Positions 33,300-60,053 of a stretch of DNA of 64,000 bases are shown piece after piece (position 1 is the first letter of the stretch; the number at the start of each line of letters is the position of its first letter). The DNA is taken from positions 74,968,308 through 75,032,307 of the forward strand of contig JARDVH010000059.1 of the NCBI GenBank assembly GCA_030324005.1, written 5' to 3'. Made by a program: the position numbers and the translations under genes. Below the pieces are notes generated by a model. That model was not told the origin of the DNA. It was given only the letters and a program-made list of their open reading frames with translations, and ran no database searches. The DNA comes from Negaprion brevirostris. Lineage: Eukaryota.

Positions 33300-33810
33300 A
33301 AAATCACCCCCTAAATCGCCGGAGGAGTGTAAAGCAGATTTACAAGGATGATTCCAGAACTGAGAGATTACAGCAATTAGAAAAGATTCAACAGGTTGGG
33401 GCTTTATTCCTCAAAATAGAGAAAATTTGGAGTGGGCCTGATAGATAACTTTAAAATCCTAAATGGATTGAATTGCAGAGAGAATGCTTCCATTTATGAC
33501 AGAATCTGAAACCGGGGTCCATAAATACATTAGTTATTAATAAATCCAATAGTGAAACAAGGAAAAATTCTTTTACTCAATGTGTGATTAGAATGTGAAA
33601 CTTGCTAGAACAATAATTGGTCACAGGAAAATAAACTTAAATGATTTAAAAAGGAAAACAAGGTCAGTATACAAGAGAAAAGGGAAGAGAAAGATAAGTT
33701 GAAAGACTGAGATGAGGTTTGAGGAAACTTTTGTGGAGTGCAAATACCAGCATAGGCTAATTGAGCTGAATGGCCTGCTTGTATGTTGTATATTCCAAGT
33801 AATTCTCTAT
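33300..33810 (+). mobile_element. CR1 LINE 3' fragment
   Basis: QIYKDDSRT-type region, nFFTQCVIRM motif, ctgaatggcctg tail. Confidence 0.6.
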
Positions 33811-33827
33811 AAATTCTTGTTGTACAT

Positions 33828-34127
33828 AGTCCCTCGTGTTAGTACACATCTCTCCACAGTCCCTGGTGTCAGTATACATCTCTCCACAGTCCCTGGTGTT
33901 AGTACACATCTCTCCACAGTCCCTGGTGTCAGTACACATCTCTCCACAGTCCCTGGTGTCAGTATACATCTCTCCACAGTCCCTGGTGTCAGTATACATC
34001 TCTCCACAGTCCCTCGTGTCAGTATACATCTCTCCACAGTCCCTCGTGTCAGTACACATCTCTCCACAGTCCCTGGTGTCAGTACACATCTCTCCACAGT
34101 CCCTGGTGTCAGTACACATCTCTCCAC
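33828..34127. repeat. Minisatellite, 10 x 30 bp (AGTCCCTGGTGTCAGTACACATCTCTCCAC)
   Basis: Ten near-perfect units, with variation at only three positions. Confidence 0.97.
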
Positions 34128-35650
34128 TGCCATCGATTGCAAATCACTGCTTCACGCTGGATGTAAATAATCAATTTGGCCAGCAGAGGGCACATGCTAC
34201 CTTGCCCTGTGAACGCATTTCCAAGTATAAAACCCAAACACTGAAATGAAGCTTCCAGGAACCTGGAGTGAAAGCAGAAAACACTCCTGATGCAATGCAG
34301 ACCAGTGAGCATCTGTGAGAGAATAAACATGATTATTTGTGGTGGGAATTGAAGATGGTGACTTTGGTCTTCCCAATATTTAGTTGGAGTAAATTTCTGA
34401 TCACCAAATCCTGGATGTGGGACAGTCAGTCTGATCATTTGGAAATGGTGAAGAGGTTTGGAGTGATATCAAATGATAGCACTTGAAATGGATTTCCAAA
34501 GAAACTACTCCCTCCACGATACCATGGCTCATATTTAGAAAAGCTTCACTTCCATCCCCCATTCTCCTCTAGCTTTTCTTGTACAGAAGCTTATCAAGGA
34601 TGTACAGTATGAATCAGTCCATGCTAGTGTTTATGCTCCTCCAATCTTTCCTTTCCTAAACCTACCATTCTAACTGTCTATTCCTTTATCCCACAAAGGC
34701 TTGTCTAACTTCCCCTTAAATGTATCTATAATAATCGCTTCAGTCTCTCCCAGTCGCAACAGCTTCCACTCTTTGGGTAAAGAATTTCCTTAGGATTTTC
34801 AAATTGATTTTCTTGAAGACTATCTGATTTTTCTCATGGAATATGAGCATTTCTAGAGAGGCCAGCACTGGTGCTCTTTCCTAATTTCTGTTGAGGTAGC
34901 CTCTAGTTATGCCCCACCTACAAGCATAAACCAGAAGTAGGCCTTTTGGCCCATCATTCAATGAGATCATGACTGATCTGATATAATCTTCAACACCATC
35001 ACACCATCACCAAAAAAACCTACGTGCATCTCCATAACTAGGCCTATGTCTGCTGCACCTCAGCTAATCTGCTGCTGTAATCCTCATCCTCACCATTGTC
35101 ACCTCTGGACTTGGCTATTCCAATGCATTCCTTATCGGCCTCCTTTATTCCACCCTCCAAGAACTTGAACTTATCCAAAGCTCACTTCCTATATCTTGAT
35201 TCACATCACATCCCATTTAGTTATAACTCCTCTGCTCGATGACCTACATTGTTTCAGGTTTGGCAACACTTCAATTATAATTTTCTCATCCTGTTTTTAA
35301 ATCCCTCCAAGCCCTTGCCCTTTCCTATTCTATTACCTCCTCCAGTCCCCCGAGACATCAGTGCTGCTTTAATACTGGCCTCTGGAGCATCAATGATCTT
35401 AATCACTCTTCTATTGGTGCCAATGACCTAAACTTGGAATTCAATTAATGGCATCTGGGCAGGGGGAGGGGGCAGCTGGGCTGGAGGGTGGTGATGACGC
35501 TGGGACCATCCAGGCATCTAGGCCAGGAGGGGGAATGCGCCTTGAATATTAAGTCATTCATGACCACCAACTGAAATACAACTAGCTGCTGTTGTTGAAA
35601 TTTCTGTGCTCCTCAAATTCTGCTGTCTTGCATGTCTCTGATTCAAGTAA

Positions 35651-35888
35651 CACATTAAAGAAGCCATCCCCTACAGACAAGCTCTCCGTGTACACAGGAT
35701 CTGCTCAGATGAGGAGGATCGCAACAAGCACCTACAGACGCTGAAAGATGCCCTCATAAAAACAGGATATGGCGCTCAACTTGTCGATCAACAGTTCCAA
35801 CACACCACAGCAAAAAACCGCACTGAGCTCTTCAGGAGACAAACATGGGACACGGCAGACAGAGTACCCTTCGTTGTCCAGTATTTCC
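35651..35888 (+). mobile_element. Penelope-like element ORF fragment (RT thumb/linker)
   Basis: Uninterrupted frame HIKEAIPYRQALRVHRICSDEEDRNKHLQTLKDALIKTGY..DRVPFVVQYF. Confidence 0.8.
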
Positions 35889-36949
35889 TCATGCAAATCT
35901 TTGGTCTGAACAATGACTTGAGTAACTTTAAGCATGAATTATGACCTCATTTTTAAATCAGTTTTAATTTCATATTTGACCATTAATTTCCTGCTGACTT
36001 TAGCTATTTTAACCATATTGTGTATTTAATCTCATCATGTTTCTGTTGCTGGCTAAGATGATCTACTCCAAGATTCCACTTATAATTCTTTTCCATGTTT
36101 GACTTATTTTTATATTTATGCCCTCCATTTTTCTGATATTATTATTTTGGTCCACCTTCTATTCTTCTATTCTGAAGGAGAATCCACACCGGAAAAAGAC
36201 TTTGGGCCCGATTTTACCATCGCGTCGTGCCTGTTTTCAGGCATGAAAGCTTGATAAAGTTGGGCGTGAGGCGGTTAGCGCCCTCGTCTGTACAGATTCC
36301 TACTTTACCAAGGCCTAAAAATGGCTGCAATCTGAACTGTGCCTGAAACGGGCACAATGGCAATTTAAATGTATTTGCATGCATTTAACTTAAATTAATG
36401 GGCTGCCCGCCCAACTTTACCAGTGTTTCTCCCTTTACCATCGTGTTCGCCTGTCCAGATTCAGCACGAAACAGACATGCTCAGCAAAGATCTGTTTTGG
36501 GCACTCTAGCTTCTGAAGATGTAAGTTCAGAGCTTCCAATGACCCTAACTCAGATCAGTGGTCGGGGGGGAGGAAGGAGGCCAGAAGGTTCCCTGATGTG
36601 GGAGGGGACGGGGCTTGAGGGTCAGTTCGCCCTCTGGTGGGGGGAGATGGAGGGCCAGATTGCTGTCTGTTGCACGGGAAGAGGGAGGTGGGTCAGATAT
36701 ATCNNNNNNNNNNNNNNNNNNNNNNNNNNNNNNNNNNNNNNNNNNNNNNNNNNNNNNNNNNNNNNNNNNNNNNNNNNNNNNNNNNNNNNNNNNNNNNNNN
36801 NNNTGGAGCGGGGGAGTGGGTGCTTGGATGCTGCGGGGCCGTTGGGGGGCGGAGGGGCTCGAGCGGGCCGGGCTGCCGTTACAGGGAACACAGCCTCGAG
36901 CCAGCACGCGGCAGTTAACGGTCGGGTGGAGGTGGGTCACTTGGTGAAC

Positions 36950-37725
36950 ATGTGGCGCTGGGCGCTGGCGGCGACGCTGCTGCTGCTGTCAGGGGAGTCA
37001 GGCGGAGTGTGGAGGTAGGCGACCAGACAAAGAGAGTGAGTGAGTCAACCCAGCCAGTAAACACCCCATTCCTGATATCTGTATTCAAAACATGTCTTAG
37101 GAAAGGGGTTTGCGCAACCAACATCCTAAAGAGTGTGTTCCAAAAAGGATGCGCTATTTTCAGTTAGCACAAAATTCCAGAGTTGTGAACAATATCTGAG
37201 GGAAACCAATTGATTCCTCACCCTGGATAATATACAGAGCAAGGGATTTATTTGTTTTCATATGATTACTGAATAAATTCCCACAGGGAATGCAGTTCTT
37301 TTACTGAATCCATACCCTTATCCTGTTAATAATGAGACATAAATGATAAAAGCCAAACTGTGTTAAATTCGTATTTGCCTTCAATGTTATTTTTAGTAGG
37401 TTTCTTCTGCTAGGTCCTATCAAAGTATGGTTCTTTAGTCTTTCAGCTGTAACTTTGGAGTGACTCTGCCCCTATGTATTTTTAACAACGTGCTTTAATA
37501 TACTGTATTGGCCAATATCAGTATTGTTATTATAGGACAGTTCTGCAAAATGGCAAACAATAATACAACCTGGTTTCGTCCATGGACTCTCAATCTTCAG
37601 GATTTGCCTTCAAGGAGGTGGACTTCTGACTCCTGAGGACTTAGAAGGAAGATGCTGCACCTTTACACTATTTGTCTGCCTTGGGCTGTATATGCATCTC
37701 TATCCTTCTAGTTGTTCTTCATCCC
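36950..37725 (+). pseudogene. Decayed intronless SID-1 transmembrane family (SIDT-like) sequence, N-terminal ectodomain to TM1
   Basis: Signal-peptide-like MWRWALAATLLLLSG, then colinear frameshifted motifs KSVFQK-DALF (37129), QSKGFICF (37235), MQFFY and PVNNET (37290-37339), KPNCVKFVF, VSSARSYQSMVL, CP, NNV, IGQYQ, LFVCLGLYMHLY-LLVVL (37668-37719). They resemble remembered SIDT2 motifs KNVSQKDAEF, IQFFY..PVNTT, CPVYDLDNNVAFIGMYQ and MLFCLGIFLSFYLLTVLL. Confidence 0.6.
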
Positions 37726-38216
37726 ATCAAGCTGACATCACCAGTATGAGATAAGCTGTTTCCAATCTCTTACTTGTGCCATGATTAAAACCGTTTATTT
37801 CCACCTCCATATCATCCCTGTGCACACTGACCTACATTAACTCTCAGTCGAGCAATGTCTTGATTATAAAATTCTGCTCTTTGTTTTCAAATCCCTCAAT
37901 GTCCCAGTCGTTCCCTAGCTCTATAATCTGCTCCATCCCCACAATCCTCTGAATGTGTGCAATGATCTGGCTGAGCCTTCAATTGCTTCTGCTCTAAGTA
38001 ATGGCACACCTTCCAACATCTTTCTGCCTCACCCTCCTTTGAAATACTTTTTAAAATCTGCCCCTTTAACCAAATCTTTGGTCATCTGACCTGATACTTT
38101 GTTCTATAATGCTCCTGTGAATTGCTTTGAGATGTTTTAATATTATAAAGACGCTGTATAAATTGTTTCCAATATATCCTAAATCTGCAATCTCCATTCC
38201 TAGCTTACAAATCTAG

Positions 38217-38535
38217 GGGCGGCACAGTAGTAACTGTGCTGCCTCACAGTGCTAGGGACCCAGATTCAATTCCTAGTTTGGGTCACTGTATGTGCGGAGT
38301 CTGCACGTTCTCCCCGTGCCTGTGTGGGTTTCCTCCAGGTGCTCCGATTTCCTGCCACAGACAAAGATGTGCTGGTTTGGTGGATTGGCCATGCTAAATT
38401 GTCTCTTAGTGACAGGGGAACTAGCTAAGGTAAATGCATAGAGCTACAGGGATAGGGCCTGGGTGGGATTGTGGTCGGTGCAGACTCCATGGACTGAATG
38501 GCCTCCTTCTGCACTGTAGGATTCTATGATTCTAT
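38217..38535 (+). mobile_element. HE1-type SINE (tail type A)
   Basis: Full-length copy ending ctgtaggattctatgattctat. Confidence 0.88.
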
Positions 38536-38784
38536 TATCACAAAGCTATTTCTGTGATCTTGCCATGCACAAATTAGTTGCTGTGTCTTTGACATTGGAA
38601 CAGTAATTATAATTGAAGGCTTTTTTCTGTTGGCAAAATGCTTTGGTGCTGCTTCAGGTTGTGAAAAATTTTTTTTATTCTATTGCAGGATGTTAGCAAT
38701 GGAATCCCCACCAAAATGTTGATAGTGGGGATTACAGTGATAGTAATTCTATTGAATGTCATGATGAGATGGTTAGATTCTAAT

Positions 38785-39093
38785 TGAATCATAGAATCCC
38801 TAAAGTGCAGAAGGAGACCATTCGGCAGAATCCCATCTGGACTCTCCCAGCAACCCCACATACTTACCCCACTAATCCTCTTACCAATGCATCGCAGGAC
38901 ACTAAGGGTCAATTTAGCATGGCCAATGTACCTAACCCACCCATCTTTGGACTGTGGGAGGAAACAGGAGCACCTGGAGGAAACCCACATAGACACAGAG
39001 AGAACATGCAAACTCCACACAGACAGTGACCCAAGGTGGGAATCAACCTATTGTCCCTGGAGCTGTGAGGCAGCAGTGCTAACCACTGTGCCT
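38785..39093 (-). mobile_element. HE1-type SINE (tail type A)
   Basis: Same family consensus, inverted relative to the 38217 copy. Confidence 0.85.
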
Positions 39094-39109
39094 CCTATAT
39101 TTCATTTCT

Positions 39110-40230
39110 TTGCACAAATGTTCCTTGCCACTTATGAATATTGCCCGGTTCTTGCTACATACGGGCATGAACTGCTTCAGTATTTGAAGATTTGCGAATG
39201 GTACTGAACAATTGTGCAATCATCAGTGAACATCCCACTCTAACCTTATAATGGAGACAAGGTCATTGATAAAGCAGCGAAAGATGATTGGGCATAGGAC
39301 ACTACCTTGAGGAACTCCTCGAGTGATGTAATGGGACTGAGATGATTGATCCCCAATCACGACAACCATCTCCCTTTGTGCTAGTTGTTTATTACTCTAA
39401 CCAGTGGAAGGTTTCCTGCCCCCTCAACCAATTTTAGGTGACTCTAGTTTTGATAGGATTCCTGATGCCATACTCTCAAATGCTGCCATGGTGTCAAGGG
39501 CAGTCACTCTCGCTGCGCTTTTGTCCATGTTTGGACTAAGGCTGTAATGAGGTCAGTAGCTGAGTGGCCTTGGTGGAACCTAAACTGCAATCATCAAGAG
39601 CAGATTATGACTTTGTAAGTGCCACTTGATAACTCTGTTGAGAATGTTTTCCATCATTTTACTGATGATCAAGAATAAACTGATGGAACTGGGTTGGATT
39701 TGCCCTTCTGTTTGGACAGGACAAGCTGGAGCAGTTTTCCATATTGCCAGGTAGATGCCAGTGTTGTAGCTGTACTGGAACAGCTTGGCTACAGGACCGG
39801 CAAGTTCTGGAACACAAGTTTTCAGAACAATTGTCAGAATATTGTCAGGTCCCATAGTCCGAGAGTATCTAGTGCCTTCAACCATTTCTTAATATCACGT
39901 GGAGTGAATCAAATTGACTGAAGACTGGCAATTGTGTTGCTGGGACCTTCAGGAGAAAGCCAGCAAGCATCATCCACCTGGTACTTCTGGTTAAAGGTAG
40001 TTGTAAATGCTTCTGCTTTGTCTTTTGCACTGAGGTGCTGGACTCACCCATCATTGAGGTGGGGATAGTTGTGAAACGTCCATCTCCAATGAGTTGCTTA
40101 ATCATCCACCACCATTTACAACTGGCTTTTGGCAGGGTTACAGAACTTAGATCTGAACCATTGGTAGTGGAAAGCTTAACCCTGTTTATCACATGCTGCT
40201 TATGCTGTTTGGCGTGAAAGTAGTCCAGAC
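39110..40230 (-). mobile_element. CR1-type LINE RT fragment
   Basis: MGPDNILTIVLKTCVPELAGPVAKLFQYSYNTG..ISLFLIISKMME. Confidence 0.8.
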
Positions 40231-40632
40231 TGATTCCAATAGTTCATGTCAGGGTCATAAGTTTTAAGTGTGGTAGTTTCTACTCTGGATAAGTGCAGGT
40301 ATTAGATGTGGTAAGGGCTCCAGTCAGGGATGTAGACTGAGCTAGGACTGTAATCTGGGGAGACAATCCAACCAGGATTTCAGACAGGTTTCTGGCCTGT
40401 GGGTTGGGATGGATTTGATCAAGGTGCAAGTCTCAAACATCTTTAGCTGCTTTATTAATGAACTTCTCTCCACTGTAAAGTTAGAGTTGGGGATGTTCAC
40501 TGATGATCGCACAATGTTCGGTACCATTCACAAATCTTCAGATACTGAAGCAGTCTATGTAGCAAGAGCTGGGCAACATTCAGCTTTGGGCTGATAAGTG
40601 GCAAGTAACATTTGTGCAAAGAAATGAAATAC

Positions 40633-40920
40633 AGGCGGCACTGTGGATAGCACTGCTATCTCACAGCTTCAAGGGCAATGGTTCAATTCTCAGCTTGAGT
40701 CGCTGTCTGTGTGGAGAATGCATGCTCTCCCTGTGTCTGTGTGGGTTTCCTCCAGGTGCACTGGTTTCCTCCCACAGTCCAAAGTTGTACAGGTTAGGTG
40801 CATTGGCCATACCAAGTTGCCCTTTAGTCTCCTGGGATGCATGGGTAAGAGGGATTAGTGGGGTAAATATGTGGGGTTGCGGCGATGGGGCCTGGATGGG
40901 ATTGTTGTCAGTGCAGCCTC
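40633..40920 (+). mobile_element. HE1-type SINE inserted in a CR1 fragment
   Basis: Same family consensus; the flank gcaaagaaatgaaataca is repeated as gcagaatgaaataca after the element. Confidence 0.8.
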
Positions 40921-41469
40921 AACAGGCAGCTGCAGAATGAAATACAAGTTATGCGGCTTTCAGGCTGCTTCCCACGGACCCACATCCCATCTACTCTCTT
41001 TCCCCTTGCACAAGTGAACATTGGCAGTCAGCAGTGTTTGGCCAATGAGGTTTCTGTTAAAACACTCTAAAAACACATCCATTCCAATTCCCTAGAAACT
41101 CCACAATGCCAATGCCTCCCCTATCCCTCCACAGCCCTTTGGTCTTTGTCTCATCCCCAGCCCTTTGCTCGGCTCTGCCAATGACTCTCCTCTCCCTTAC
41201 ACTAATCCCAAACTTCCATCTCTAATTACTTCTCTGCAGCTTTGTTCTAATCATTTGTTCTTTATTCTTCATTCTTCAGCTTTCATTGTTGCCTCTACAA
41301 TGTTTTTATCTCACTTTCACCTCCATTTCTTTGATTTGTTCCATATCCTTATATTTCCTCCAGCTGTCATAGTGAGTTACACCACTTATATAAGTTCCAA
41401 AAGTCCATAGTTCACCTGTCTGTGTGAAGGATGGATTTTTCTTCATCTCTCCACCCCCCCACCTCCCCA

Positions 41470-41962
41470 TCCCCCAATCCCCACGAGGAATTCCATTGCA
41501 CAGAGATTGTGGATGCACTGGTAGCAATCTTCCAAGAATCTTTTGATTCGGGGAAAGTCCTAGGAGTGGAAATCTGCCATTGTAACACCCTTACTCAAAG
41601 AGGGAGGGACACAAAAGGAAACTGTTAAGAGTCCATTATAAAGGATCTAGTGGCAGAGCACTTAGAAACACATTTTATTATCAAGTAGCACTAGCATGCC
41701 TTCTTGAAGGGGAAACCATACCATGCAAATTTATTAGAGTTCTTTGAGATCATAACAAACAGAATAGATAAAGGGGAACCAGTAGATGCTTGGGCTTCTA
41801 CAAAGGGTTCAATAAGATACCACACAAAAGTCTACACAATAAGAGCTTATAGAGTTGGGGATAGTGTATTAGCATGGATAGAGGATAAACTAACTGATAA
41901 AAGACAGATGGTTGGGAAAAGAGGGGCATTTTCAGGATGCCAACTTGTAACTAGTGGAGTGC
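41470..41962 (+). mobile_element. CR1 LINE RT fragment
   Basis: EIVDALVAIFQES, NLLEFFEIITNRIDKGEPVD, LAWIEDKLTDKRQMV, VTSGV. Confidence 0.8.
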
Positions 41963-42454
41963 TATAGAAGTAAGGGAGCTTCCACTTTCAAATGGAAGTG
42001 CAACCAAGGTCAAGAGTCCATCTCCAGCAAGTGCAGAAGTCCCACCTAGAGAGAGATGCTCTTCTATTGGAAAACCCAAGGTAATATCTAGACAGACTTT
42101 TAACCATGTGAAAGGACAGAATTCTCTGTCATGAGTCAGCAGCTGTAAGAAACCCATATTTGAATCAAAGAGTTGTATGTTCTCAGTAACCATCAAATGT
42201 TAATTTATGCAAACTAATTTGTATCAACCCTGCCACTGATATGAAAATACTTCTCAGCGCCAGGGAAATAAAAAAGTTCACTTTTTTGGAAATAAATGGA
42301 TGCAATTTCTTCCTGTAGAGCCAAAAGATCTTTGCTAATGAAAAACAAAGAGAATCATAAACTAATCCCTTGTCTTCATGTTTGTAAACTTGTTGTTGCA
42401 TTGACATCAAACTTGTCAGCATTACAATTAAACCAGCTGATGATCTACCATTAA

Positions 42455-43684
42455 ATAATAAGTTTGCAAACTTTATTACTGTACGTGACTGTACAGAAAT
42501 GGTACACTCACAGAAATGGTTCTCAGAAAAGACACACAAACATGGAATTATACTTAATTGCACTTGTAGTTTATTATTTCTCTTGTTTAGTAAAATCAAG
42601 ACAAACCAGCACACAGTAACCAAACACTGCACTTTGCTATTACCTTTGAAAAATGAACAGCTTCAGCACTGGAAAATTCTTTAGCATCTAACGCTCACTG
42701 AAACAAAGCTGGAAATCTGATTTGTCATCGCTCCATTCAGCAACATAAAATATAAAATATCACTGAAAAAATTAATATTTACATTACTTAAAACATTTTT
42801 TAAAAACTCAAGAAACCAGTGTATTCATCTTTATCAAGTTGACCTTCTTGTGATATTTATATTTTTTGTTGGATTTAATGGCATATAATGCTGACTTTGT
42901 AGCTAGGTATGTACAGAACAGAGGGACACATGAAATAAATAGATGTCTGATGCCACTGGTGATTTTAAAAACTCTGCAACATTTGAAGGGTAGTAAGTTA
43001 ATATTTTCAAGCAATATTTAACCAAACAAATAAGCAAGATGTGGAAAATTAAACCCCCTAGCCTCAGGCTGTGCTCGATGTCACACACACACGCACACAT
43101 GCGTCTTTGTAATGGAAAAATTTTACGGCGGCTGAACACAACCTGCCACAATTTAAACATACCACTGCCTACTCCATCTTGTAACAAAGAATAAGAATTT
43201 AACTCATTTAAACAAATAAATTTAATCCAATTTTATATTAGGCTTTTTTTAACAAAATGAATAACTTTATACTCAAAGCTTCAAGGAAACTGATAAAATT
43301 ATGTCTGAAATGATTTCTAGAACTTTAAAACAAATTGGCTTAAACAAGCTTACTGCTTGTTTAGACTGATCTCATTACTAACTTGAACTGCTAGAACTTT
43401 TTGTTTGAATGTAGACTACTTCAGGAATGAAAAGGTCAGAATGCTCACATAAGAATATACTGAATATTATTTATAATACTATGAGCTAAAGAGGCTATCT
43501 ATGTAGCCAGATTCACAGGATTTCAGATTGACATGCAGTTGTACACTATCTGCCTGCAGTGAACTGAAGTATATCCTCAACATTCCATGGCAATTATGTT
43601 GGTAACAGCTCAGCTCAGCTGAGTTTAAACTAAAAATTCAGCATTTCTGCCAGCTTAAGGAATGGAAATCCTGTTGAAGAGTCT
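42455..43684 (-). other. hey1: hey1 3' UTR (approximate) with candidate poly(A) signals
   Basis: AT-rich block with no recognisable transposon, downstream of the stop. Minus-strand AATAAA at 42575-42570 and 42477-42472; Pumilio-type TGTACATA at 42915-42908. The end point is inferred. Confidence 0.6.
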
Positions 43685-44262
43685 TTAGAAAGCACCGATC
43701 TCTGTCCCCCAGGGTCTGTAGGGCTTGCCAATGCTGTTCGTCGGAGTCTGAGCTGATGAACTGAATGTGCTGGGAGGAATCAAGGGGAAAGTGCTGAAAG
43801 ACAGAGGGAATGCAGACAAGGATGACATTGAAAACAAAGGTGGGGACAGTTTGGTGGAGGAGGTGACCACTGGGATGACTGGACCAACACTGCAATTAGG
43901 AGCCACTCTGAGTGGAGAGGTATCTGTGTGCGAGGACGTGCCGATTCTGTTCTGAGGCTCTGTTGAAGCAGTATTACTATTGTTATTATGGGCAGCCTGC
44001 GGCAGTAACAACGGGTGCAAATGATGATGTGGGTGCTGACTGAAGCCAGAGCCCCAGGCAAGGTGTCCAATGCTAGGGGGTGCAGTACTTGCAGCTTCCC
44101 TCTGAGATGCATAGTTATTGAGGTGAGAGACCAAACGCACACGAAGTGGATCAGAGTTCTCCAGGCCTTCAATTATACTCAAGTACCGAGCCACTTCAGC
44201 CAAACATTCTCGAAATCCCAGGCTACGGTAGTCCATAGCTAGTGCCTGAGCATCAAAATAAC
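43685..44262 (-). CDS. hey1: hey1 coding exon 5 (578 nt; Orange domain, YRPW and TEIGAF motifs)
   Basis: TATAG|GTTATTTT acceptor, [19 protein letters not shown]...[16 protein letters not shown] stop at 43687-43685. Confidence 0.97.
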
Positions 44263-46027
44263 CTATAACATCGGATAAAATTAAAATAAATTCATTTTAG
44301 AAGTCACACACTGTAGCAATTGCACTGTCTCATCAGGAGATCTTTCAAGTTCTGCTTTATAAAAGTAGCATTCATATAAAAGCAATCTCCTTAAGTGTAC
44401 AACAACAACTTGCATTTATGTAGTGCCTTTAGTGTAGTAAAATGTTCACAGTACAGTAACTGGAAAAAAAAGTGGCACTGAGCCACAAAAGGAGATATCA
44501 AGATGGCTTCAAACTGACCTTAAAGGGGAGTTGGAGAGATAGTTTCATCAAAATACATCTCTTACTCTATGTGAGACTTATTAATCTTTGGTCAACTAAA
44601 TAAAATTAAACTTAAAACATTCTCATGTTCTTATTTTCTTAATTCAAAATACCTCTCATCATAGTACCCAATGGAAGTGCCTGGCTGCATTTTATAAAAT
44701 ATAAATGTAATTAAATGTACACAACTATACAGTTGTGAAAAAACAAACTGAGGAATCTTTGACAAATGATTGTGCTGAAATAAGGTTTAGGAAGTTGTGG
44801 TTCTCTGAACTTCTGTACATCTGAAATGCCAAGCCAGAGCAAACTTAGGAATTAACCATTTGTTTCAATTTCCAGTAAAAGCCCAACTCATAATTGGGAG
44901 TCTAACACTCTTCAAGTATTTCCAAACTTCTGCAAAGTATATATTAACCACTGCCACTGTCTAACCTCTCCTAGAAATGCCCAAAAAAGTTACCTTTGCC
45001 ACCGGCCGCATGCAGCATCTTCAAGTGATCAACGGTCATTTGCAAAATCTCAGCCTTTTCTAGTTTGGCGGATCCCTGTCAACAGTAACAAGGGACTATA
45101 ATTAAAGACCTGTCAATGTTCTGTACGACACACACAGTGGTTTATTTAAAGTATAGGTAATTTTCTTGGGACTTAGTTTTACTTGACTCTAAAAAAAATT
45201 TAAATTATTCTTAACAAAGCAAGCTGGAGGATTTTTATGTGTTGGAAGTTACTTGTGAATCGAGGAGTAAAACTAATTTCGCATACTTGTTTCTCATAAG
45301 CACTCGGGACCAGCCTTCGCAGTTCTGACAAGCTGTTGTTAATACGATCCCGGCGGCGTTTTTCTATGATCTGTTTTAAACAAAATAGATGTACTTTTTA
45401 AAAAAAGATTCAGCCGGACAAAACGCTCTGACTACAAACAACAACAAAAGCCATCTTATTTCTCAGGGTGTGAAACTTACCCCTCGCCTCCTTTTCCTAG
45501 CCAGGAGCTGAGAGGATGTACTGGGGGACAAGGAGCCGGTGGCTGTGCTGGAGTTCCTGAAATCCAATCCAATAAAACCCGGGATCAGCATTCGAGCAAA
45601 GTTTGTTTTGAAACGTTTATCGGAAATTTACAAACGGGGGTTCTTCTCTTCTAAGCAACAACCCCAAATTGCAGAAACGAATGTTAAATACCCCAAACTA
45701 CAGCCTCAGAAATGAATGTGTTGCAGCAAAACTTTCCTGATTATTTTTAATGCATTGCTCTGAGTTTCATCACATCTATCCACATTTCAGGAAAACCCCT
45801 GGTATTTAATATTTTAGTAAGAAGTCTCACCACACCAGGTTAAAGTCCAACAGGTTTAGCCTGGTGTTGTGAGACTTCTTACTGTGTTTACTCCAGTCCA
45901 ACGCCACATTTAATATTTTGCTCGTGTTTGGACGTTACCCATTTTCATCGGCGCTTTCTTTCTCGATCACTTCGATCGTCTCGTCCAGCTCGCTGTCCGA
46001 CGAGCTGTAGTCGTGAGTTCTCTTCAT
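43685..46027 (-). CDS. hey1: Hairy/enhancer-of-split related with YRPW motif 1 (bHLH-Orange repressor); spliced CDS join(46027-45939,45556-45481,45370-45287,45075-44994,44262-43685) = 909 nt, 302 aa
   Basis: N-terminus [20 protein letters not shown], b[59 protein letters not shown], Orange domain [20 protein letters not shown]-terminal [13 protein letters not shown]. All four introns are GT..AG and the reading frame is continuous. Confidence 0.97.
44994..45075 (-). CDS. hey1: hey1 coding exon 4 (82 nt)
   Basis: GACAG|GGA acceptor, encodes [27 protein letters not shown], donor AAAG|GTAACT. Confidence 0.96.
45287..45370 (-). CDS. hey1: hey1 coding exon 3 (84 nt)
   Basis: AACAG|ATC acceptor, encodes [28 protein letters not shown], donor CAA|GTATGC. 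Confidence 0.96.
45481..45556 (-). CDS. hey1: hey1 coding exon 2 (76 nt)
   Basis: TTTCAG|GAACTCC acceptor, encodes [25 protein letters not shown], donor GGG|GTAAGT. Confidence 0.95.
45816..45907. mobile_element. Penelope-pLTR-derived hairpin insertion in hey1 intron 1
   Basis: 29-bp inverted arms (27/29 match) around a 10-nt loop; 12-bp TSD ATTTAATATTTT at 45804-45815 and 45908-45919; same sequence family as 51060-51143 and 60054-60130. Confidence 0.8.
45939..46027 (-). CDS. hey1: hey1 coding exon 1 (89 nt)
   Basis: ATG at 46027-46025; ends GAAAATGG|GTAACG donor. Confidence 0.95.
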
Positions 46028-46520
46028 GCTGGCTTCAGTTGTGTGCGCGCTATGACATGAATAGGGGTGCGGGCAGATGCACTCCGCTACGCTGCCTGCG
46101 GGACACTGCTTCGCCTTTCCCACGGTCCCTGCACTTACTGAGCTGTCAGAGCGCCGCCAGCGCCGCTGATTGACAGCTCGCGCGGCCCATTGGCCCTGCT
46201 GCTCCGGAGAGCGGGGGAGCCCCGGCCCCGCCCAGCGCCCGATTGACAGCTGCGCCCCTCCAGTCAGGAAGCCGCCATTCCGGATGGCTGCGCCGCCATT
46301 GGTCTCCGATGGGGCCAGTTCCCGCTCACAGCGGCCAATCAGGTGGCGCTCTCCCCCTCCCCCGCGCGCCGTCAGGCACGCGCAGGCGGTGGGAAGCGTG
46401 GGAAAGTTGTGGCGGCGGCCGGGCGCGCGGATGGAAGTAGCAATTGGCTCGGGGCGACTGTGGGTCTGCGGCGGAGCGTGTGAACAGTAACATTAGCCGC
46501 TCAGAGCCACGCCAAGCTCA
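46028..46520 (-). promoter_or_regulatory. hey1 CpG-island promoter / 5' UTR
   Basis: Very GC- and CpG-rich against a CpG-depleted background. RBPJ sites GTGGGAA (46389-46395) and CGTGGGAAA (46397-46405); CCAAT boxes at 46189, 46298, 46335, 46443; TGATTGACAG at 46167-46176; GC boxes. Confidence 0.88.
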
Positions 46521-47164
46521 CTGCTGCTCCATTTATACCGCTCCCCCCCACCCACACACACAGCCCCTCCCAATGCCACCTCCACTCATTACACTCTGTC
46601 TCCATCCACACAGACCTCGAGGTGACTCAGACACCGCAACACATTCATAATGCAAGCAGCCGCTTGCCAAACCGACCTCTGTCCCCATTTGCAGGTCTCT
46701 TTATANNNNNNNNNNNNNNNNNNNNNNNNNNNNNNNNNNNNNNNNNNNNNNNNNNNNNNNNNNNNNNNNNNNNNNNNNNNNNNNNNNNNNNNNNNNNNNN
46801 NNNNNGTCCCCATTTGCAGGTCTATTGATATACAGTGGGAACGGGTGCAATGCGACACTTTATTGCATATGTGAAGAACTGATTCAAACAGACAGATAAC
46901 AAAACCGCGCAACTCGAAACCACACCAAACAGGTGCTCGAGCCCGAAAGGGTACCAGGCTCAGGGTGAGAGGAATTATTTTCCAGACCTCCCTCCCACCC
47001 TTATTTAGTGCAAATCCACACCAGCACAACGTGGTTAAAAGTGTAATCATTTCAAATTGAGTAACTGCAAATCAAAATGCAATAGATGCTGGAAATCTGA
47101 AATATAAACCAAGAAACAAATGCTGGAAAAACTCAACAGGTCTGTGGAGAGAAAGAGGCACAGA

Positions 47165-55992: not shown

Positions 55993-58900
55993 GCCTTGTC
56001 AAGACAGTTGTTACGTCAAGTACGGATATTAGGTGAAAAGGAACTTGCTACAATATACATTCTGGCAAACATGTATGTGATATAACTCACAAAGTGAAGG
56101 TTCACAAATATCAGGGACCCACCCTTTAAAATCCTAACATATGGAGCAGGTGAAAGTCCAACACCTACAGAGGCCAAGTTTGATTATCTTATGTCTGCAA
56201 GAAACTAATTGCACAAGTATCTGTTGTATAACAATAACAGTTATCATACCATTGAAGTCTGAGTAAGAAACTTCCAATTGGACAACACACCCGAGCCTGA
56301 ATCATGAAGAATAATTTAACTGCGCTTAAAAGATTTCCTAACAAAGTGAGTAAGTGTGATCAGGTAAAGACTCAATGTCAATACACTCTGAGCAAATAGC
56401 TGGGAAACACTCACTGCCTGGGATTCGACAGGAAGGATGGGTCACCTGAATAAAGCACAAGGCAAGAACTCGATCAATGTCATTTGAAGAGTGAGGTGGG
56501 GAGGGAGAAGAGAAACCAGGTAAGGTTGAATTGAAAGGATACAACGAAAGTGAAATTTCATATCCGAATGTAAGGAGAGATTTTGGTTCCCACCATAAAA
56601 ATTAGTTCCCATTCTCTCCTGCTCGGAAACTGCTGGTTCTACTTGCTGCAAAGTGAGGCAAAAATCATAACTCAAACAATGCCTGACTTGGATTATCCAA
56701 TAACTGAGCTTGAATAAAGAGAGATAAAGAATTCCAGCCTTTTAAAGGACAGAGATCATAGCGTTTCGGCAGTCTATAGTAATAAGATTTTATGACGTAT
56801 AAAGTGTTCAACTCCGAATCGATGTGAAACAGTATCAAGCTGCAGCTTGACTGGGTTTAACTGTGCCATTATTGTGCAGTGTACCGTGGCACCTTGTTCC
56901 CATTCCTTGCGTGTGTTTTTGTAAGACTTTATTGTTAAAAATGTTATTTTGCAAGAAAAAGACTTTTTCCTGATACACCAGGGAACCTTATAGCAGTTGT
57001 TAAAAGATCAAACAGTCGTCAAAATTCACCTGACTAACATCCTTGCGAAACTCGACCAATTAAAAAGCAACCGATAATCATTTAAAAGGGGGCTAATTTT
57101 TTGCCCAAGATCATTCTGAATCCTCTTGTACTACAGTGCCTGCTTTCTCCCCTTTGAAGATTGCAGACATTGACAGCTTCTACATCTGCAATGAATGTGT
57201 TTAATCCTCTCCAGTGAGTATCCATTACTGCCCACAATCCCGTGATCCCTGCCGGATAAAGTGTCCACTTCATGCTGAACAATGGGCTGAGGTCGAGTCA
57301 TTTTGGTTTGTCATGGAGACAGGAGATCGTAAATATAAGAAAAGCTGCTCGCCTGGACAGCATGGGGCATCTGGTTGCGAGATGTCGCAGGGGCCGTTGT
57401 TATTGTCTCATTTTGCAAGAGTCGCATGACCTGCTCGACCTGCACTCCCCAAACATATTTTCTGTCAAAACACAGCGGAGACTCAACAAACAGAAAGCCC
57501 TTTCTTATTTAATGGAGTGAAAATGGCTNNNNNNNNNNNNNNNNNNNNNNNNNNNNNNNNNNNNNNNNNNNNNNNNNNNNNNNNNNNNNNNNNNNNNNNN
57601 NNNNNNNNNNNNNNNNNNNNNNNNNNNNGACTCGATGGTCAACTGCTTCTGATCACCATCACAAATGGGGCTTTAGTCTTTCTCAGGGTGACAGGCCTGG
57701 AGCTGGGTTTTTTGCTTTGTTGTTTTCCTGTGTGTGTATTTTTGTTTGTGTTTGGCTTGAGACAGGAGGAGATCTCCGGCTTTCCCACGCTTGGCCTTGC
57801 AACTCCTTGCTTTTTTTTTGTTATCATTCACATCACTTCTTGTAATGAACTCAGGCTCTTATCTGCCCAGGATACGGGTGTCCTCACAGAATTAGATTAG
57901 CAATCCTGTTAAAGTCATTCAAAACTGAAATGGGGAGAAGTCAGTCTGCTATACAAAATGATTGAAAGCTCTGTTTTCCCTCCTCCGCCTCCGCTACAAC
58001 CACCACACATTCCTGCTCAAGCCAGTCCATGCCAAAGTGGCACTCTTCAAATAAAATATTCTTGGGATGTGGGTGAAGCTGGATAGGCAGCATTTACTGC
58101 CCATCCCTAGCTGCTCTGAGCCCACTACAAAGTCTAAAGTCAAACAGACTGTGCAGGGGCAACAGATTTCATTCTCTGAAAGACATTACTGAACTAGTGG
58201 GGTTTTTTAGGATAGTCCAGCAGCTTTCACGGTCATTTTCTCTTTGGTGCCGGTCCACAAATTACCAGATTTCTTTTAGCTCAATTTCACAAACTTGTCC
58301 TAGTGGGTATTGAATTTAGTATTATAATCACGAGATTACTTTGTGAAGATTCTCATTCAAGAATGTAACAAAAAGTTTTTTTTAATAGTAATCCTAATTT
58401 ATTGCAGACCTAGATCACCATGGTATCTGTAATTGGAACTGCAGGAACTGTTTCAGCAGTTTTTAATAATAACTTCTCTAGGATTTGTAGTCTCAAAGAA
58501 ACAGATTTAAAAAGGATACATACTGTCAAAAACACACCAAAGAACATCTGATCTATTTCCACTGTTCACGTTTTACAATTATTCGACCTGATATTGTTTG
58601 AAATAACATTAACAATTTACACTCAGATCTATAGAAATTGGTCAGATCTGTAGATTATGACAAATAAGGACTAGTACAATAAAGGCTACAATCAGGAAAT
58701 GTAAAATGAATTGGACAAAATGAGTAAAGGGCTAAGCAATGGCAAATTAAATTTAATAAAGTACTGCAGATAATGGAAAAAAATGGACAATAATCTTCAT
58801 GAATAGTGTCTTCTGATTCACATTTGTTCAAAATAAACACACTCTAGACTCAAAAATGCTGGAGCCTCACTGAGTGCATTTCTTGCAGATTTCCATGTGA

Positions 58901-60053
58901 CTGGTGCATTGATAGACTGATGCCTTATTACTCAGACTGCAGTGTATCAGTGAATGTGATACCCCAGAATATATATTCACATAACAATTAGTTCTGGCTT
59001 TTAACAAATAACATAATGGAACTGTAAAATAACCAAGGAAGAAACTGAAAGAGATTTGTGAGTTACAGTAGACTTGGCACTTAACATGCAGAGCAGCAAT
59101 CAGTAAAGCTAACAGACGGCTGAGCTAGACAGTCAAAATCATAATTACACATCTGAGGAAAACATGCCCAAATACTTTGTACGATGGTCAGGTCACACTT
59201 TGTGTTCTTTGTGTAGTAGATCTGTAGATGGTTCTGTAAATAGCAATGACACAGATCCTGATTGTCACATGCTAATAATCTGTGATCTTTTAACGGTATA
59301 AAAGACATTGAAAAAGTAGACCTAGAAGACTACTTCAAACTAAAACAATATTCTAGCACAATGAGTAAAACAAAGAAAAACAAATTTGGGGCATTTNNNN
59401 NNNNNNNNNNNNNNNNNNNNNNNNNNNNNNNNNNNNNNNNNNNNNNNNNNNNNNNNNNNNNNNNNNNNNNNNNNNNNNNNNNNNNNNNNNNNNNNNNNNN
59501 NNNNNNNNNNNNNNNNNNNNNNNNNNNNNNNNNNNNNNNNNNNNNNNNNNNNNNNNNNNNNNNNNNNNNNNNNNNNNNNNNNNNNNNNNNNNNNNNNNNN
59601 NNNNNNNNNNNNNNNNNNNNNNNNNNNNNNNNNNNNNNNNNNNNNNNNNNNNNNNNNNNNNNNNNNNNNNNNNNNNNNNNNNNNNNNNNNNNNNNNNNNN
59701 NNNNNNNNNNNNNNNNNNNNNNNNNNNNNNNNNNNNNNNNNNNNNNNNNNNNNNNNNNNNNNNNNNNNNNNNNNNNNNNNNNNNNNNNNNNNNNNNNNNN
59801 NNNNNNNNNNNNNNNNNNNNNNNNNNNNNNNNNNNNNNNNNNNNNNNNNNNNNNNNNNNNNNNNNNNNNNNNNNNNNNNNNNNNNNNNNNNNNNNNNNNN
59901 NNNNNNNNNNNNNNNNNNNNNNNNNNNNNNNNNNNNNNNNNNNNNNNNNNNNNNNNNNNNNNNNNNNNNNNNNNNNNNNNNNNNNNNNNNNNNNNNNNNN
60001 NNNNNNNNNNNNNNNNNNNNNNNNNNNNNNNNNNNNNNNNNNNNNNNNNNNNN

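Follow-up and report, generated by a model that had tools for sequence, protein, structure and literature searches.

Vertebrate genomes contain thousands of orphan CpG islands, and a CpG island is generally taken to be a stretch of at least 200 nucleotides with a GC content of at least 0.5 and an observed/expected CpG ratio (o/e) of at least 0.6. In the available part of PMC3583005, non-methylated islands are described as common in intergenic DNA, often at enhancers, non-coding starts or unannotated transcripts, and predicted CpG islands of cold-blooded vertebrates as agreeing poorly with measured methylation. Orphan CpG islands tend toward basal transcription, and some retrocopies have one as their promoter (excerpts of PMC5927659). 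Methylation at CG in elephant shark DNA is about 70%, apart from regulatory exceptions (excerpt of PMC5437953). HEY proteins prefer CACGYG, bind mainly in CpG islands and repress HEY1, according to the accessible portion of PMC3355086.

We analysed a CpG-rich patch (the leader, 36804-37025) and the AT-rich, single-copy body that follows it (37026-37780) within 64,000 nucleotides of DNA from Negaprion brevirostris, referred to throughout as the window. Like the orphan CpG islands described in the excerpts of PMC3583005 and PMC5927659, the patch is CpG-rich and GC-rich, lies over 5 kb away from any recognised coding gene, has a developmental regulator nearby and retains its CpGs across species. 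Unlike them, it is visible over 222 nucleotides only, a gap hiding its 5' side, is known here from sequence alone, and is conserved no better than its flank. The retrocopies with an orphan CpG island as promoter, as excerpted from PMC5927659, resemble the locus in that a CpG patch directly precedes DNA that looks intronless and has a donor-like site, and differ from it in that no parent gene was found and no poly(A) tail was seen here. With the SID-1/SIDT1/SIDT2 family (PF13965), of which a sequence-only reading of this DNA had proposed a retrocopy or dead third lineage, the stretch shares short look-alike motifs and a hydrophobic start only; it differs in having no significant profile, pairwise or DNA match, inconsistent motif spacing and no detected membrane domain. 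Our literature search found no paper treating SIDT1, SIDT2 and shark together.

With a probability of roughly 55%, we read the patch, 6.7 kb downstream of hey1, as a germline-unmethylated orphan CpG island and the AT-rich DNA after it as likely non-coding, with no SIDT ancestry detected there. As it stands the locus is of small importance, adding one candidate for a distal element of shark hey1. The useful outcome is negative, in that the proposed third SIDT lineage is without statistical support.

The patch and its neighbourhood

The recognised neighbour is a Hey-family bHLH-Orange gene on the minus strand (43685-46027), with matches to the Hairy_orange (E 4e-13) and HLH (E 1.4e-8) domains. 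Its product starts MKRTH and ends WGTEIGAF, and the gene is presumably hey1, the paralogue named in the sequence-only reading. The patch lies 6.7 kb beyond the hey1 stop codon, and leader, body and hey1 stand on one contig (36804-46705), the next gap beginning at 46706. Immediately upstream of the leader is an assembly gap of 100 N at 36704-36803, which had earlier been said to reach 36823. The leader itself is as CpG-rich as the sequence-only reading had described it, with 20 CpG in 222 nucleotides, a GC content of 0.70, an o/e of 0.85 and a GC skew of +0.37, values that place it within the CpG-island range given above; its visible part falls short of the stricter length of 500 nucleotides. 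The body has a GC content of 0.39, 5 CpG and an o/e of 0.18, and the o/e averaged over the whole window is 0.25. When the 64-kb window was scanned in segments of 222 nucleotides, at least 15 CpG were reached only in the patch and in the hey1 promoter region.

Motifs in the patch were compared with expectation. A GC box and an E-box were present at chance level (P 0.69 and 0.36, respectively). A HEY-type box, CACGCG, lies at 36905, and related organisms B, F and G carry GTCACGTG at 36936-36943, with CACGTG at 36938, six bases upstream of the ATG described below; the lineage of the window is without GTCACGTG, lost through one change at 36941. A single HEY-type box turns up in 36% of shuffles, and these boxes may serve as a lead only. 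An RBPJ-type site at 37278 was rejected as a signal, as the window holds 16 such sites. As would be expected of a Notch target, the CpG island of the hey1 promoter (46117-46404) holds one CACGCG box and two RBPJ-type sites reading CGTGGGAA.

Towards the 3' end of the patch, an ATG at 36950 opens a plus-strand frame of 22 codons (36950-37018), a signal-peptide-like run of GCG/CTG triplets that reads MWRWALAATLLLLSGESGGVWR and closes with TAG at 37016-18. Both this frame and the possible donor AG/GTAGGC, with its GT at 37015, had been pointed out before and are present; use of the donor in splicing is putative. Two further donor-like GTGAGT lie at 37036 and 37040; the plus-strand donor-like sites fall at the GC-to-AT step (37013-37045). 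A signal-peptide heuristic was passed in 2 of 2000 dinucleotide shuffles of the leader, and this rarity favours a real exon over an island alone; the heuristic was post hoc, being defined after the sequence was seen, and fires at nine ATGs across both strands of the whole window. The ESM Atlas gave no lead for an 82-residue ORF at 36919-37164 (best score 0.78, low recognition), and none of the 124 plus-strand ORFs of at least 46 residues between 37018 and 63983 reached the Pfam cut-off, a screen that short exons would escape.

The stretch in related organisms

The stretch is present in 20 sequencing runs from 11 studies, none of them on record as RNA and thus without bearing on expression, and four runs were aligned at 80% likeness. 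Each aligned run yielded a single contig. That of organism B covers the whole stretch with 25 substitutions, that of F covers 36892-37780 with 82, that of G covers 36822-37780 with 71, and organism E contributes a 246-nucleotide piece only; in run X14 coverage was limited to 37273-37516. Leader and body share one contig in B, F and G, which rules out a mis-join at the gap, raised earlier as a way in which the CpG-rich piece could be spurious. The junction between leader and body is real and old. A second contig at 80% likeness was found in none of three whole-genome runs, a result that excludes young copies or close paralogues only.

The patch is common to organisms that are 8-10% diverged. 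In the comparison with organism F, changes fall on 13 of 134 leader sites and on 21 of 196 sites of the body next to it (p 0.85); the leader is therefore no more conserved than the body. Among the changes listed for F, transitions fall on 2 of the 24 CpG positions of 36892-37025, a rate equal to that at other C or G positions, 13 of 144. With a 5-fold excess of change at CpG, about 9 changed CpG positions would be expected (P 0.001), and with a 3-fold excess about 6 (P 0.04), in what is a comparison of one organism and 24 sites. This lack of CpG hypermutability in F, set beside the roughly 70% CG methylation of elephant shark DNA (excerpt of PMC5437953), suggests low germline methylation of the leader. 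The earlier proposal that the 5' end stays unmethylated thus gains modestly from CpG retention and from the absence of hypermutability in F, and loses by the 30 loose letters just upstream in F, where by eye CpGs have decayed at about 3 of 6 positions, and by the poor match of predicted to measured islands in cold-blooded vertebrates noted above. Over 36892-37780 (runs X16 and X18), the two relatives are biased in opposite directions: C>T/G>A changes number 38 in F and 17 in G, and A>G/T>C changes 9 and 25, which may point to GC drift or methylation specific to each lineage here. The general C>T/G>A excess of F is a further point against the island reading.

The 22-codon frame was followed in organism F by hand. 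Its ATG, stop and hydrophobic core are kept, with six residue changes, one silent change and one 3-nucleotide deletion, and 8 of the 66 sites from ATG to donor differ. Among the changes listed, the sole indel in the ATG-to-donor segment is of 3 nucleotides and falls inside the triplet run, and those in the body are of 4, 2, 1, 2 and 4 nucleotides and frameshifting.

If the patch is an orphan CpG island, protection from methylation would keep its CpGs from decay, and the remaining sequence would drift at the rate of its neighbour. By analogy with other such islands, it may offer open chromatin and act as a weak promoter or a distal hey1 element; lying 6.7 kb past the hey1 stop, it would have hey1 as its likely target, if any. 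The signal-peptide look would then be a by-product of the GCG/CTG triplet runs, and the SIDT motifs would be chance matches.

Tests for SIDT ancestry

Reference proteins were collected in three steps. A degenerate pattern for a SID-1 family motif retrieved 121 metagenome loci, one of which holds a full-length ORF (PF13965, E 3e-220) that also matches SIDT1 and SIDT2 chains in the PDB. This ORF as query gave 120 proteins, mostly named SIDT1 or SIDT2, and frog SIDT1 as query gave the best 150 of 2606 cluster representatives. The resulting set comprised 270 distinct SID-1/SIDT proteins, none of them labelled shark, which limits sensitivity.

Protein-level searches gave no match above controls. 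The six read-through frames of the stretch had no Pfam hit, PF13965 included, and tblastn of 121 proteins against 36800-42400 gave best E values of 0.88 (minus strand) and 1.6, the latter over residues 672-700, outside the ectodomain. Our own SIDT family HMM found no domain under E 0.9 in the window. Frameshift-aware profile alignment, the check suggested in the sequence-only reading, stayed within composition-matched shuffle controls, its score being equalled or exceeded by 34-112 of 300 shuffles for the full-length protein and by 22-152 of 300 for the ectodomain. A permissive ectodomain path at 37033-37521 has the correct length, with a score reached by 22 of 300 shuffles. Single-protein z-scores above 3 against 40 plain shuffles (14 and 30 of the 270 proteins, some with z 4-6) were rejected, because they came from mutually incompatible protein regions and because reversed SIDT proteins scored better than forward ones, with means of 43.5 versus 39.0 and 52.6 versus 44.1 and maxima of 57 versus 55 and 70 versus 65. 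Hydrophobic composition is thus the likely source of these scores.

The case for SIDT had been built on about eight colinear motifs, of which no list was given. Chains of at least eight colinear 6-residue SIDT-like motifs with free spacing occur in 109-111 of 113 window tiles, and the claimed chain does not stand out from chance; short motif chains taken from a protein turn up in almost any kilobase of this genome. The stretch's own chains have 11-12 motifs, and the reversed protein equals or beats them for three of four references. A near-diagonal chain of ten motifs to one SIDT2 (P0160) was equalled in 1 of 100 shuffles and in a single one of the 113 tiles, which may itself overlap the stretch; for the other three references, 13, 38 and 34 of 100 shuffles were as good. 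Only one of the eight chain tests (P0160) was above controls. That chain, whose register makes no use of the ATG, would align the ATG region with SIDT2 near residue 50, which contradicts the signal-peptide model proposed with the motifs. The look-alikes that could be picked out (SKKDALF, NSRVVN, FPQGM, LCPYV, NNVL, IGQYQ and FVCLG) lie, in this order, on diagonals of +35, +31, -68, -34, -35, -32 and -57 codons against a SIDT2, a scatter that needs large compensating insertions and deletions. Changes at 37185 and 37187 common to B, F and G weaken NSRVVN, and an insertion at 37420 common to B, E and G breaks a further look-alike, YQSM.

For comparison at the DNA level, we built decay-aware profiles from 42 SIDT1-type and 80 SIDT2-type ectodomains, with six held-out proteins excluded. 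In some settings their scores exceeded all 500 plain shuffles; these were rejected, as they vanish when leader and body are shuffled separately (observed score reached by 81-354 of 500), and the high plain-shuffle scores are due to the GC step at the leader/body boundary. The reversed profile scores like the forward one, and in most settings the top control tile is the hey1 CpG island. On the body alone, 36 and 27 of 500 shuffles equalled the score of a teleost-dominated SIDT2 profile, whose log-odds were negative; the numbers were 104 and 87 for a four-sequence amniote-type SIDT2 profile, whose counts span 79-144 of 500, and 445 and 447 for the SIDT1 profile. On plus-strand tiles across 37051-44850, the profile of the conserved SIDT membrane domain (430 columns) never rose above -0.1 bit.

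Detection power was estimated from simulated retrocopies at 0.4, 0.5 and 0.6 substitutions per site. At the protein level (48 runs) 85-96%, 50-83% and 27-44% were detected, and with the best DNA setting (36 runs) 100%, 89% and 53%; power for the whole membrane domain was 100% at 0.4 and 21% at 0.6, and for 150 residues of it 38% at 0.4. Only a fossil at about 0.5 substitutions per site or more could thus have escaped. At the shark mutation rate of 7e-10 per base per generation given in the available part of PMC10587355, such decay corresponds by our arithmetic to about 7e8 generations, although long-term rates may exceed this one. The SIDT proposal is also inconsistent with itself, since a body eroded beyond detection would need 0.5 or more substitutions per site, roughly, and the leader drifts equally fast. 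A start and 22 codons would hardly be kept intact by neglect through so much change.

Alternative readings and neighbouring repeats

Two further readings accept the patch as it is and assign it another role or none. It is rather unlikely, in our estimate, that the patch is functionless, being either the G-rich tail of a repeat-like element to the left of the gap (36204-36703) or a GC-drifted spot, its CpGs persisting without a regulatory role. G skew is found on either side of the gap (+0.48 and +0.37), GGAGGTGGGTCA is common to both sides, the contigs of B and F stop 51 and 68 letters left of the aligned part, and conservation of the leader is no higher than that of the body. However, alignment of the two G-rich parts stays at shuffle level (55 of 500), the 12-mer common to both sides is broken in B, F and G, the single contig per run at 80% likeness argues against the leader as a multi-copy repeat, and organisms 8-10% diverged have the leader in common. 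Less probable again is a role in an unannotated plus-strand gene that encodes a secreted protein or a peptide of 21-22 residues: the patch would supply its promoter and its first exon, from ATG 36950 to donor 37014, and the AT-rich body would be its first intron or 3' untranslated part. An exon would fit a signal-peptide-like ATG that few shuffles reproduce, the donor-like sites exactly at the GC step, the in-frame indel between ATG and donor beside frameshifting ones in the body (among the changes listed), the start, stop and hydrophobic core retained in F, and the positive GC skew, which is consistent with plus-strand transcription. Against these stand the 8 of 66 changed sites in F, no fewer than in the body, and the six residue changes to one silent; slippage in a triplet run yields an indel of 3 nucleotides anyway, the heuristic is post hoc with nine firing places, and no downstream plus-strand ORF reached the Pfam cut-off, though short exons are missed. 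More doubtful still is the specific form of this idea in which a shark-lineage gene runs head-on to the 3' end of hey1, interfering with it or controlled by it, the CACGCG at 36905 and the CACGTG at 36938 of B, F and G being HEY-type boxes; were the first-exon reading true, the locus would hold a lineage-specific gene convergent on a Notch effector.

The remaining readings concern the body. That it is a very old SIDT retrocopy or a dead third SIDT gene, decayed by at least 0.5 substitutions per site, we hold to be very improbable, although if true it would be a record of a lost vertebrate SID-1 paralogue. The P0160 chain, the ectodomain path of the right length and the teleost SIDT2 profile point toward it, and power of just 27-53% at 0.6 substitutions per site, with references lacking any protein labelled shark SIDT, leaves it some room. 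The other three references, the register of P0160, the better scores of reversed proteins, the block-shuffle null, the amniote-type profile and the undetected membrane domain point away from it, as do the generations required and a neighbouring LINE remnant that is still recognisable. We give least credence to a decayed retrocopy of some other gene, with the GC-rich 5' end derived from the first exon of the parent. The sharp GC step that follows the signal-peptide-like start here is also what one would see in a retrocopy of a CpG-island gene. In opposition, no Pfam match was obtained in six frames, the PDB searched with three frames gave three chance matches (E 0.94-2.4), and in a protein database none of the 1869 and 774 word-sharing candidates for two read-through frames scored, a search that is weak for frameshifted input. 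At 80% likeness the three whole-genome runs gave no further contig, and no poly(A) tail was seen before the LINE remnant at 37799; of the marks of a processed pseudogene, neither a parent nor an A-tail was thus found. Rfam, searched over 35500-43700, returned no match up to E 1. Our preferred reading remains that of an orphan CpG island with likely non-coding DNA behind it.

The repeat-like element at 36204-36703 is CpG-rich and consists of a fold-back 5' part and a G-rich 3' part that reaches into the gap; 36198-36470 folds at z -3.7, with inverted arms at 36245-66 and 36408-29. It may belong to a shark repeat family. No matching right-hand terminal repeat was found past the gap and no second copy in the window. 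A terminal inverted repeat pairing 36204 with 38052 was rejected, as its right arm falls in what is presumably a LINE 3' end. The decayed LINE 3' remnant at 37799-37983 (plus strand), which we assume to be L2-like, aligns to a copy at 35211-35394 with 122 of 178 aligned bases identical (68.5%), a score reached by 0 of 200 shuffles, and possibly extends weakly left to about 37700. The whole body as LINE was rejected, since left of 37790 the alignment is at or near chance (7, 108 and 166 of 200 shuffles).

Several minor observations were made in passing. A decayed LINE 3' remnant lies on each side of the locus, at 34950-35400 and 37799-37983, both pointing the same way. Short stathmin motifs had no exact match in the window. 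On the plus strand at 58848-58988 there is a weak match to the Plexin PSI domain (E 2e-4, 16 residues) that lies below the cut-off and is probably chance. A tandem array with a 30-nucleotide unit, seen as repeated 10-residue ORFs, occupies 33757-34170. On many of the metagenome contigs, intronless genes encode SID-1-like proteins some 400 residues long, apparently without the ectodomain, for example at loci L030, L049, L003, L029, L040 and L053, the contig of L040 being 624 kb long.
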